Positions 11,099 to 17,037 of a DNA stretch of 64,000 nt are shown one piece after another. The notes under the pieces are model-generated. The model did not search any database and was not told where the DNA came from. It saw only the letters and a list, made by a program, of their open reading frames with translations. Made by a program: the position numbers and the translations under genes. The stretch spans positions 320,001 to 384,000 of the forward strand of contig OY969814.1 of assembly GCA_963703345.1 (NCBI GenBank). Direction: 5' to 3'. The first letter of the stretch is position 1; each line of letters starts with the position of its first letter. The stretch comes from an uncultured Chloroflexia bacterium. Its GTDB lineage: Bacteria > Chloroflexota > Dehalococcoidia > DSTF01 > JALHUB01.

Positions 11099-11383
11099 CT
11101 AGCGCTTCTCCCGTCGCAGCTCGATTGTGACGGTGCCTCGGTCCATGCAGTTGAGCTCGACGGAGTCGGGATCGCCCCAGCCCGCCGGGAAGCCGCCGCC
11201 GAACTGGAGCATGACGATGTAAGGGAAGATATCGTGATAGAGGAAGCCGCAGAGGCCGGCGGTGTTGTGGGCGCTGATCTCGAACTCGTCGCCGGCCTTG
11301 TGGCCCATGCTGCAGTTGCCTTTGACGTTGCGGATCGTGGCCCAGACGCGGTTGCCGACCTGCGCGTACTCTCGTTGCTCCAT
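11099..11383 (-). CDS. TIGR04076-like small Cys-containing protein
   Basis: KGNC..GHK.GD.F, GLC, C-x-D pattern. GAGG RBS before MEQREY. Confidence 0.75.
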   Translation of the reverse strand: MEQREYAQVGNRVWATIRNVKGNCSMGHKAGDEFEISAHNTAGLCGFLYHDIFPYIVMLQFGGGFPAGWGDPDSVELNCMDRGTVTIELRREKR

Positions 11384-11601
11384 GGTCGCCTCCTCTTGCT
11401 GCAAGCTTCGACGCGTCGAGGCGCGGGTTGGAACAAGCGTACTGTGGGCGACAACGGGTGTCAACGGTGGCACAGCGGGTTTCTTCTTGGCCTGAAGTCG
11501 GGAGCCGTTCGCGTGGGGCGGGCGTTCTGCCTGTCGGGGAGAGAACGGTTCTGGGTCTGAGATCGGTTGGGTTCGTTCGGCGGTTCGGAGGACATGCGAT
11601 T

Positions 11602-11752: not shown

Positions 11753-12268
11753 TTATATCTCGCGTGCTAGTTCCGCCAGGGAGCGGCGCGGCGTCGCTCG
11801 CGGCTTCTCCGCCGCATAGCCGATTGGCAACAGCGCCACCGGCATCCGTTCTTCGCCGACGCCAATCGCCTCCTGAACGTCCCTTCGTCGGAACGCGCCG
11901 ACCCAGCACGCCGATAGGCCGAGGTCGTGGGCGGCAAGCTGGGCGTAGGCGCAGGCAATCGTGGCGTCCTGGAGCGCGTAAAGGCTCTCGCCGCGACGAC
12001 CGTACTTCGCACTCGATCTCTCCGGCTCCGCCAGGAAGATGAGCACGACCGGCGCCTGCCCGACGAACTGCTGGTCTGCCGCCGCTTTCGCCAGCGCCTG
12101 GCGGGTCGCGAGAGTCCGCGCCACAACAATCGAATACGCCTGCAGATCGCCGGCGGAAGGCGCGCGATTGGCCGCGTGCAGTATCTTCTCCAGGTCCTCC
12201 GGCGGCACCGGGGCGTCGCCGTACACCCGGACGGAATGCCTTTCTTCAATCAGCGTCATGAACTCCAT
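11753..12268 (-). CDS. Nitroreductase family protein
   Basis: RHSVR, APSAGDLQ, LAAHDLGLSACWVGAF, PIGY. Confidence 0.9.
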   Translation of the reverse strand: MEFMTLIEERHSVRVYGDAPVPPEDLEKILHAANRAPSAGDLQAYSIVVARTLATRQALAKAAADQQFVGQAPVVLIFLAEPERSSAKYGRRGESLYALQDATIACAYAQLAAHDLGLSACWVGAFRRRDVQEAIGVGEERMPVALLPIGYAAEKPRATPRRSLAELAREI

Positions 12269-12305: not shown

Positions 12306-13184
12306 TCACAGTTGACCTTCCTCGCGACGCTTCGCCTCGGCGCGCAGCCGCGCCTGCTCCCGCAGGTACTTCGTGATCGGCGCCGGCTCCGACGGGTACC
12401 AGGCTTTGCTCCAGTAGTCGAAGTCCGGCCAGTCGTACGGCAGGTTGACGACCGCGTTCGGCTCTTTGATGTCGACCAGCGCCCGCAGCGAGTCGCGGAT
12501 TACGCACATCTGCTCGTCACGGTCGCCGGTGTGCCCCAGCGGATGGCCGAACGGGAACTCGACGCCGACGATCCGTGGCGTTCCGGCCGCCTGCGCCAGA
12601 TACGGGACCATCGTTACGAGGACGGTGCTTATACCCGCTGCTTCGATTGCACGCGCCAGCACGGGCGCGTTCCGGCAGCACTCCGGTCAGACCGGCGTAA
12701 GGAAAGCGCAGTTGACCTCCTCGTCTTTCATGCGCGCGGCGATCTCCGGCCCGTAGCGCTCCCGCCACTCGTCGTTCGACTCCTGGTATCCCATCACCGA
12801 ATAGCTCGTCGGCGCCAGCGAGCCGATCTCGCCCGACGCCTCCAGCTCAAGGAAACGATGGATGGGCAGCGCGACGTTGATGTCGGCCTCCAGATCGCTC
12901 GTGTTGATGTGCAGGTGGGCCACGCCGATCTGCTCCTGACGCACGTCGCGGGGGATGGCGCGATAGGTCGGGTCGCCCCAGGTCGGCTCGCGCCTCTCGC
13001 GTTCAAGGTCGAAGGGCTCCTGCCGGCCCTTGACGTAGGCGCCGGCGGTGCTCAGGAGGGAGAAGCGGCACTCTCTGAGCGGCTTTCGCAGCGGCGCCCA
13101 GGGCACGGGAGCCTTGTCGACGTGCAGGTTGCGGTAGTAGTTCGCCAGCGAAGGCGGCAGCCACTTAAAGCTATCAACGGCCAT
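12306..13184 (-). CDS. PrdB/GrdB-like (reductase selenoprotein B family) protein with in-frame UGA read as Sec
   Basis: Two track ORFs share one frame and are separated only by TGA at 12689-12687: ...FLTPV-U-PECCRNAPVLARAIEAAGISTV... UxxC motif plus STAG, GDPTYR, DIN..P and PFGHP motifs. Confidence 0.85.
12636..12686 (-). promoter_or_regulatory. Putative bacterial SECIS element
   Basis: mRNA hairpin ACGCGCC-CGUGCU-GGCGCGU with the loop 23 nt after UGA and GU near its start. Possible lower stem UGCUGC/GCAGCG. Confidence 0.7.
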
Positions 13185-13209
13185 TCTTCACCTCCTGCTG
13201 ATTGCACAG

Positions 13210-14091
13210 CTAGATGCCCAGGACCCGGCGGGCGTTCTCGCCCAGGATCAGGCGTTTCTCTTCGTCTGACAGCGGCAGCGCCTCGATGCGGTCGATATCG
13301 CGTACGGGATGGAACCAGGGCCAGTCGGAGCCGAAGAGGATGCGTTCCGCGCCGAAGCGTCGCACCAGCGCCACCGCCTCCTCGTCCGACATTTGCGGCG
13401 GTTCGATTGTGCCCTCAATGACGCTGGAGCTGTCGAAGTGCAGGTTGGGGAACTCCTCCGCCATCGCCAGCGATTCGTCAATGTAGCCGTTGCCCATGTG
13501 GGCCAGCACGAACCGCAGACGCGGATGCGCCCGCAGGATGCGCGCGAATGCCCGCGGCCGCGAGTGGTCCGACGATTCCGGGTCCATCGGGAAGAAGCCG
13601 CCGTGGGAGAGGACTGGCATCTCGAGCGATTCCGCCTCGGGGTAGAGCGGCCACAGATTGGGGTCGTCCGGGTTGAACCGCTGGGACGACGGGTGCAGCT
13701 TGATGCCGACCGCTCCCTGCTCGCGACAGCGCCTCACCTCGGCGACGACGCCGTCGGGCCCCATCGATGGGTCGACGCTGATGAACGGGACGAGCGACGG
13801 ATGGTCGCGGGCGGTCCTGCAGGTCCAATCGTTGCGGCGCTTAAGGCGTTCGATCATCTGCTGGGCCACCTCTTCGGGCGGGCCCTTGCCGGCCGCCAGC
13901 GCCGCCTCGCGCATGTCGGCGACCGGCGTCATGTTCATCATCGCCGCCTTGTCGACGCCGCCGACGGACATGAGGGCGAGGAGCTCCTGGACGGTGCCGG
14001 CGCAGCCGCTCATGGCCGTGCCGCCGGTCGCCTGGAGGCCGACGGCTGCGCTGGGATAGGTGTGGACGTGGACGTCGATGATGTTGAGCAT
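13210..14091 (-). CDS. Amidohydrolase_2 family metal-dependent hydrolase
   Basis: IDVHVH, GIKLHP, LAHMG, FGSDWP, ILGENA. Confidence 0.9.
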   Translation of the reverse strand: MLNIIDVHVHTYPSAAVGLQATGGTAMSGCAGTVQELLALMSVGGVDKAAMMNMTPVADMREAALAAGKGPPEEVAQQMIERLKRRNDWTCRTARDHPSLVPFISVDPSMGPDGVVAEVRRCREQGAVGIKLHPSSQRFNPDDPNLWPLYPEAESLEMPVLSHGGFFPMDPESSDHSRPRAFARILRAHPRLRFVLAHMGNGYIDESLAMAEEFPNLHFDSSSVIEGTIEPPQMSDEEAVALVRRFGAERILFGSDWPWFHPVRDIDRIEALPLSDEEKRLILGENARRVLGI

Positions 14092-16726: not shown

Positions 16727-16879
16727 TTTTCTGGGATTAACGCCGGCGTTTGGTGGTTGGGGGCGCGAAGTCGGGCCTGCAAGACGGGAACAGCGGGCGC
16801 TGCGAGGATGCTTCGACGCAGCACAGGCAGAGCGGTTGTAGCGCGGTCGTCGATGAGCTATTATGAGGGTTAGACCAAG

Positions 16880-16993
16880 GTTTTCGGGAGCTGGGGGATC
16901 TCGCCTGAGGCGGGAGGGCCCGGCTGAGAGGGTGGCCGTAGCACCGCCACCGACCGTTCGAACCTGACCTGGGTAATGCCAGCGTAGGGAGAA
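16880..16993 (+). ncRNA. TPP riboswitch
   Basis: GGGAG...GCTGAGAG...GAACCTGACCTGGGTAATGCCAGCGTAGGGA directly upstream of thiD. Confidence 0.93.
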
Positions 16994-16995
16994 GT

Positions 16996-17037
16996 AAGCG
17001 CTACTCGTCCCTGCGACGGCCGGCGCTTTTTGTTTTG
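16996..17037 (+). terminator. Riboswitch-associated intrinsic terminator
   Basis: AAGCGC...GCGCTT stem followed by a T-tract; the loop region TCCCTGCG is complementary to the aptamer 3' end. Confidence 0.6.

Follow-up and report, generated by a model that had tools for sequence, protein, structure and literature searches.

The window, a stretch of 64,000 nucleotides, carries on its minus strand (13184 to 12306) a run of 165 codons, an in-frame TGA (12689-12687), a further 126 codons and a terminal TGA. The earlier note had described two same-frame open reading frames parted by a single TGA in the context TPV-U-PECC. This is what translation of the minus strand gives: the TGA is codon 166, the surrounding residues read FLTPV-U-PECCRN, the UxxC motif consists of U166 and C169, and a second Cys follows at 170. 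The features of the locus are as follows.

12306-13184, minus strand: PrdB-like gene, 292 aa if the internal TGA is read as selenocysteine (Sec); the second, terminal TGA is the real stop
12687-12689, minus strand: in-frame TGA, putative Sec166; all 34 alignable loci have TGA here, and 65 of the 94 representatives that span the site have Cys
12675-12680, minus strand: Cys169-Cys170, Cys169 being the putative resolving Cys of UxxC; C169 in 33 of 33 rows, C170 in 28 of 33
12651-12670, minus strand: SECIS-like hairpin with a 7-bp stem and the loop CGUGCU (12663-12658), the GTG of the downstream reading frame lying inside the loop; covariation and synonymous constraint
13190-13196, minus strand: Shine-Dalgarno-like AGGAGGT, 5 nt ahead of the ATG, seen directly in the sequence
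13210-14091, minus strand: amidohydrolase gene (PF04909) upstream, separated by 25 nt; listed as context and not as a demonstrated partner
11753-12268, minus strand: nitroreductase-family gene (PF00881) downstream, separated by 37 nt; likewise context and not a demonstrated partner

The hairpin, ACGCGCC-CGTGCT-GGCGCGT, comprises seven pairs and a six-nucleotide loop in which GU occupies positions 2-3. The 7-bp stem and the GU-containing loop announced in the earlier note are there; the 23 nt given as the distance from the TGA is the distance to the loop, and the stem begins at 16 nt. In bacterial selenoprotein genes, as described in the available text of one survey, a stem-loop lies just 3' of the UGA and bears a G in a small apical loop (PMC1088965); the hairpin has this form. 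On its own it is unremarkable: the folding of the 101-nt region is no stronger than that of its shuffles (z -0.43), and of 3000 plus-strand TGA triplets drawn at random from the genome, 42 have an equally stable hairpin downstream and 212 a 7-bp stem. Rfam returned no family at the hairpin. Its conservation among relatives is well beyond chance. In an alignment of 32 sequences, 89.3% of the cells for the seven pairs are paired, and 15 changes are double-sided; none of 500 shuffles matched either the pairing or the double-sided count, and every slid control was lower. This test leans in favour of the hairpin, because the structure was derived from this gene and the sequences are related.

Constraint at synonymous sites is an independent test, and it agrees with the hairpin pairing. 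In 26 codon-aligned genes (the two most distant loci and five rows without DNA having been left out), the four-fold sites at codons 167 and 173-176 show an entropy of at most 0.27 bits, where the minimum among 70 four-fold sites outside codons 167-178 is 0.80 bits. The hairpin sites at codons 177 and 178 vary, the variation at 177 being a compensatory pair, and by eye the hairpin fits poorly in five distant members. A terminator-like hairpin at 12306-12291 is within chance (four found; 2.4 +/- 1.8 in shuffles).

The codon for residue 166 is TGA in all 34 alignable loci (35 were examined, one of which stops at a contig edge); among the 34 are this gene, a genome represented twice (L013/L015) and the unpublished G213. 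At the level of the class, 120 of 301 genomes have a match, with a TGA within 149 of the 150 places listed. In protein databases, a search restricted to 160-511 aa listed 120 homologues, 115 of which are shorter than 200 aa and terminate immediately before U; the remaining five run the full length and have Cys (three) or Asp (two) in its place. A profile search returned 3790 representatives at E<=0.001. Among the best 150 of these, 38 stop within two columns of the site and 94 span it, of which 65 have Cys, the commonest residue there, and 29 other residues. Homologues aligned at this position, as the earlier note had proposed to do, carry either TGA (34 of 34 loci) or, in most spanning representatives, Cys (65 of 94).

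These data bear on the simplest alternative, that the two reading frames are independent genes or a pseudogene interrupted by a nonsense codon, which we find barely credible. The databases do list the halves as separate proteins, a GTG start lies 24 nt past the TGA, and one TGA-bearing genome (G185) gave no selA or selB match. Against this, the codon is always TGA and never TAA or TAG in the 34 loci; the GTG, which sits in the hairpin loop, is GCG in four of them; and the natural Cys forms are full length. The intervening codons are, moreover, the most conserved: mean amino-acid identity is 0.56 upstream of the TGA and 0.51 downstream, and reaches 0.70 over the eight codons that a two-gene model leaves untranslated, being highest just past the TGA. 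As to G185, its copy (L016, G185:C83) is 85% identical, sits on a contig of 2.4 kb and clusters with this gene and not with G185's own family; it likely reflects misbinning or recent transfer.

The genome to which the window belongs is a single contig of 2.28 Mb, 95.85% complete, with 64% GC; the five nearest named loci (Dehalococcoidia or Chloroflexia) are 79-90% identical. It encodes selA (456 bits), selB (357 bits) and selD (354 bits), all three proteins over their cut-offs, and a tRNA-SeC(tca): the selA, selB, selC and selD whose presence the earlier note had wished to see checked. Within the class, selA occurs in 115 of the 120 genomes with a homologue, and a homologue in five of the 72 genomes without selA (kin are not independent). 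Sec machinery and a Cys or Sec at the aligned position in homologues, either of whose absence the earlier note had held to be fatal to its proposal, are therefore both found. The two reading frames are very likely one gene in which UGA is decoded as selenocysteine, and SelB almost certainly would bind the hairpin and Sec be inserted at residue 166. The single 292-aa selenoenzyme of the earlier note is supported, as a prediction from sequence, by TGA or Cys in homologues and by the Sec genes; its expectation that annotation would split the gene is borne out by the databases. The upstream half is labelled 'D-proline reductase PrdB' in several of these, and JGI gives many homologues the name 'PrdB'.

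Some further observations were made on the genome. The selD gene (L007, G000:C1:799221-800153, minus strand) has an in-frame TGA of its own (CAG-U-AGK) and a 7-bp hairpin with a GUC loop from 33 nt downstream. A noisy scan also found in-frame TGA codons between long coding-like stretches, with no hairpin, near G000:C1 61585, 714877, 1413832 and 1818543, all on the minus strand; these four may represent neighbouring genes, errors of assembly or disrupted genes. A TPP riboswitch (RF00059, 59.9 bits) lies at 16874-17007 of the window on the plus strand, ahead of reading frames that we take to resemble the thiamine biosynthesis genes thiD/thiC.

The earlier note called the product PrdB/GrdB-like. 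PrdB-like it is, and it passes PF07355 (GRDB; 30.2 bits against a gathering threshold of 22); it fails the cut-offs of both the PrdB and the GrdB families. The best family model is TIGR04483 (PrdB), matched with E 9e-51 over residues 26-252, spanning the TGA, at 172.6 bits where the cut-off is 300. TIGR01918 (GrdB/GrdF/GrdH) matches the C-terminal half only, with E 3e-11 and 43 bits against a cut-off of 65.45. Among 58 full-length representatives scanned (58 of 62 selected), just one passes the PrdB cut-off (453.2 bits), sharing 33% identity with this protein. A quick tree of 68 rows, with SH-aLRT support only, puts 27 of them, this protein included, in a single branch (SH-aLRT 99) distinct from canonical PrdB and GrdB; members of the group had been selected for their resemblance to the query, and five near-duplicates were omitted. 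By sequence, then, the protein is a member of a distinct branch outside PrdB proper.

The branch is marked by an N-terminal MxVDS arm, an ERERREPxWG insert and a C-terminal WxPxEPxPI arm, of which canonical PrdB has neither the insert nor the C-terminal arm. C169 is invariant (33 of 33 rows) and C170, which makes the motif UxxCC, is present in 28 of the 33; outside the motif W69, D71, R75, H90, H92 and D101 are invariant or near-invariant. AlphaFold2 predicts one confident alpha/beta domain (mean pLDDT 95.7; arms and insert at about 90 or more) that places residue 166 between strand 159-163 and helix 167-182. A PDB sequence search gave no match at E<=1 for the protein, and its profile chance-level phosphotriesterase rows only; Foldseek gave no match at E<=0.001. 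The best VIA-align hit (Z 8.5, rmsd 4.2, 140 aligned) is tied with many generic alpha/beta folds. No solved structure thus matches clearly, which is not in itself evidence of a new fold.

Several relatives deserve mention in their own right. Two full-length homologues, P0018 and P0021, have Asp replacing Sec (D-A-N-C-C) and are nested within the Sec-bearing branch; both Asp166 proteins retain the invariant or near-invariant residues outside the motif. Full-length homologues with Cys fall at two separate positions in the tree. Genomes with other branches of the family have as many as five copies, some of them in tandem. A second PrdB-like UxxC branch (L071:4064-5248, L075:3323-8237, L082:3294-4523 and L084:3671-4846) has a C-terminal extension of 150-200 aa that gave no Pfam or NCBIfam match, and L075 has three tandem copies. 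At L083:7266-9990 two full-length GrdB-type genes stand beside GrdE-type genes and read U-G-T-G-T-R-C, without the first Cys of UxxCxxC.

Comparison with the characterized systems shows likeness and difference in each case. With the clostridial D-proline reductase PrdB (TIGR04483; PF07355) the protein shares homology over residues 26-252 and Sec in UxxC at the same place; it is some 50 aa longer, however, and reads UxxCC where canonical PrdB reads UxxCH. The canonical prdB cluster has the order prdC-prdA-(a 92-aa PrdH-sized gene)-prdB, whereas no prdA, prdC or prdH was found in this genome. To GrdB/GrdF/GrdH (TIGR01918) it is related through the weak match of the C-terminal half and a Cys three residues after Sec. 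Unlike these proteins, of about 430 aa, it has 292 aa and is without the N-terminal half of some 200 aa; UPECCRN lacks the second Cys of the UxxCxxC motif given for GrdB in the available part of PMC6778437, and no GrdA or GrdE was found in the genome.

The earlier note had seen no PrdA or GrdE partner in the window, and none was found in the genome or in any of the 26 genomes with close relatives. PF09338 and TIGR04480 gave no match in the genome (95.85% complete), nor did the GrdA family PF04723, which matched no control genome either. Because the built-in controls were silent for all three of these models, PF09338 was run on all 301 genomes of the class. It matched 35, every one of them among the 120 with a PrdB-like gene, and not one of the 26 that have close relatives (E<1e-70; 25 without G213); in 85 of the 120, then, there is no PrdA/GrdE-type match. 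A tblastn search of the genome with real PrdA, PrdC, PrdH and four GrdE-type proteins found none at E<=0.01, where PrdB, the positive control, retrieved this gene at 1e-39.

Membership in a true D-proline reductase, whose remaining genes would be missing from the assembly, is on these grounds very improbable. In its favour TIGR04483 is the best family match (E 9e-51), many homologues are called 'PrdB' by JGI, and the genome falls short of 100% completeness. Opposed to it are the score of 172.6 bits against 300, the 33% identity to canonical PrdB, the separate branch, and PrdA-type genes in none of the 26 related genomes; a weak PF05544 match covers 80 of 325 positions of another reading frame, which we take to be a diaminopimelate epimerase. 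Identification as D-proline reductase PrdB is thus largely refuted: the protein is below the cut-off and in a separate branch, and PrdA, PrdC and PrdH were not found in the genome.

Neighboring genes were compared at 26 loci of 8-13.5 kb. The amidohydrolase adjoins the gene upstream in seven of the 26, all close relatives; the nitroreductase lies immediately downstream in five, again close relatives, and two genes further in one more. Neighbors are conserved among the closest relatives only and otherwise differ. This pattern bears on the notion that the protein works as a subunit beside a partner which has no relation to PrdA/GrdE and whose gene lies elsewhere, with the flanking nitroreductase perhaps feeding electrons. 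The known members of the family are all subunits, as far as the accessible portions of two papers describe them (PMC13188914, PMC11229817), and the amidohydrolase and nitroreductase genes are tightly spaced, on the same strand and kept in close relatives; with these two at seven and five of 26 loci, and no other neighbor cluster widely recurrent, we consider such a complex distinctly unlikely. A Pfam scan of 79 flanking proteins (at most two genes per side, one per cluster, those above 900 aa omitted; the simple caller could miss short or UGA-split genes) found no peroxiredoxin, thioredoxin or PrdA family. Two alphaproteobacterial plasmid homologues have no annotated prd or grd neighbors within 5 kb, unlike canonical prdB. 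Two genes downstream, at 11099-11473 of the window on the minus strand, is a TIGR04076 protein (46.1 bits against a cut-off of 33), kept in four of the 26 loci; the family presumably has a redox link.

What, then, might the enzyme do? In D-proline reductase the pyruvoyl group of PrdA binds D-proline and the Sec of PrdB attacks, a Cys mutant being inactive, according to the available part of PMC11229817. Since PrdA was not found, a Prd-type D-proline reaction is unlikely here. The Sec/Cys pair at the predicted start of a helix remains, and we judge a thiol-dependent reductase to be the most likely role. Our proposal, which we hold at close to even confidence, is that this PrdB-like selenoenzyme, without a PrdA/GrdE subunit, may reduce small oxidants such as peroxides or S/N-oxides at the expense of thiols. 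The selenolate of Sec166, predicted at the start of helix 167-182, would attack the oxidant; Cys169 would then close a selenenylsulfide with Sec166; and a thioredoxin system would re-reduce it. In selenoenzymes generally the selenenylsulfide is recycled by thiols, as the accessible text of PMC10298544 has it.

A redox role is supported by the invariant C169, by a thioredoxin-reductase-like gene in the genome (E 2e-71) and by COX1, which scores above its cut-off in 19 of the 25 genomes that carry close relatives. From this last count it also follows that the gene is not tied to Stickland anaerobes. GrdB is said, in the title of one paper (PMID 17009022), to show peroxidase activity. Against the proposal, COX1 was not found in this genome or its congener, so that oxygen respiration is not evident here; the 79 flanking proteins scanned included no peroxiredoxin; and the sole AhpC/TSA match in the genome is without an in-frame stop and sited away from the gene. 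The conserved W69, D71, R75, H90, H92 and D101 would be more in keeping with a pocket for a particular small molecule than with the removal of peroxides in general. We also count against the proposal the two Asp166 homologues, the 29 of 94 spanning representatives without Cys at the site, and G185, with its TGA gene and no selA or selB match. The substrate class is the weakest step. As a separate observation, the thioredoxin-reductase-like gene (G000:C1:159349-160146) lies about 1.5 kb from the tRNA-Sec gene (161712-161805).

The main rival is that the same selenoprotein retains the C-N or C-S cleavage of Prd/Grd without the cofactor, acting on a substrate that needs no pyruvoyl activation, such as a quaternary amine, a sulfonium or an activated halide; its own terminal arms and insert would then form the binding site that PrdA gives Prd. 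Betaine reductase is not known to require a pyruvoyl group. The extra N-terminal arm, insert and C-terminal arm of the subfamily are confidently modelled, and the copy numbers in other branches, up to five per genome, are those expected of substrate diversification. The chemistry has its precedent in Prd, where Sec attacks the alpha-carbon of the substrate and a Cys of PrdB cleaves the selenoether, as set out in the available portions of two papers (PMC3091704, PMC11229817). Against the rival, no conserved transporter or catabolic gene stands alongside across the 26 loci, and GrdA, the product acceptor in Grd systems, was not found (with PF04723 lacking a positive control match). We regard cleavage of this kind as somewhat unlikely, and place it behind the thiol-dependent reductase.

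'PrdB' UxxC selenoproteins have been catalogued since 2005, and the gene adds a member of a distinct branch to a kind that is itself known. It resembles the UxxC family named 'proline reductase PrdB' in the Sargasso Sea and GOS surveys, predicted Sec-containing PF07355 proteins from outside Clostridia, matched here by motif and Pfam identifier alone. The available text of these surveys reports 42 'PrdB' genes in the Sargasso set, the third most abundant family, against one grdA and one grdB (PMC1088965), and 235 Sec and 110 Cys forms in GOS (PMC2398784); in that text the family is called proline reductase and the missing partners are not addressed (PMC1088965, PMC2398784). A 2026 review, in the part accessible, treats PrdB solely as a proline reductase subunit (PMC13188914), and BSepDB covers Dehalococcoidia, with PrdB not named in the portion of its main text available (PMC13326102). 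In a literature search with subscription papers mostly outside its scope we found no study of partnerless PrdB-like proteins; the supplements of BSepDB and of the surveys may list the subfamily.

The finding matters firstly for annotation. Gene callers split such genes, and the label 'D-proline reductase PrdB' on the upstream half would point to proline reduction of the Stickland type in organisms in which no PrdA was found. Secondly, the branch is a testable target: it offers a single confidently modelled domain, has no solved relative in PDB searches, and includes natural Cys variants that are expressible without recoding. Thirdly, the family is abundant, and it is in 85 of the 120 class genomes with a PrdB-like gene that no PrdA/GrdE-type match appears. 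A broader possibility, which we think unlikely, is that partnerless PrdB-like proteins are the main body of the superfamily and clostridial PrdB a small offshoot (one of 58 passes the cut-off). The present branch would then be self-sufficient, its own arms replacing PrdA, and would carry out, with no pyruvoyl cofactor, the reductive cleavage of a C-N or C-S bond in an environmental metabolite, an unrecognised catabolic reaction that would be widespread in soil and marine Chloroflexota.
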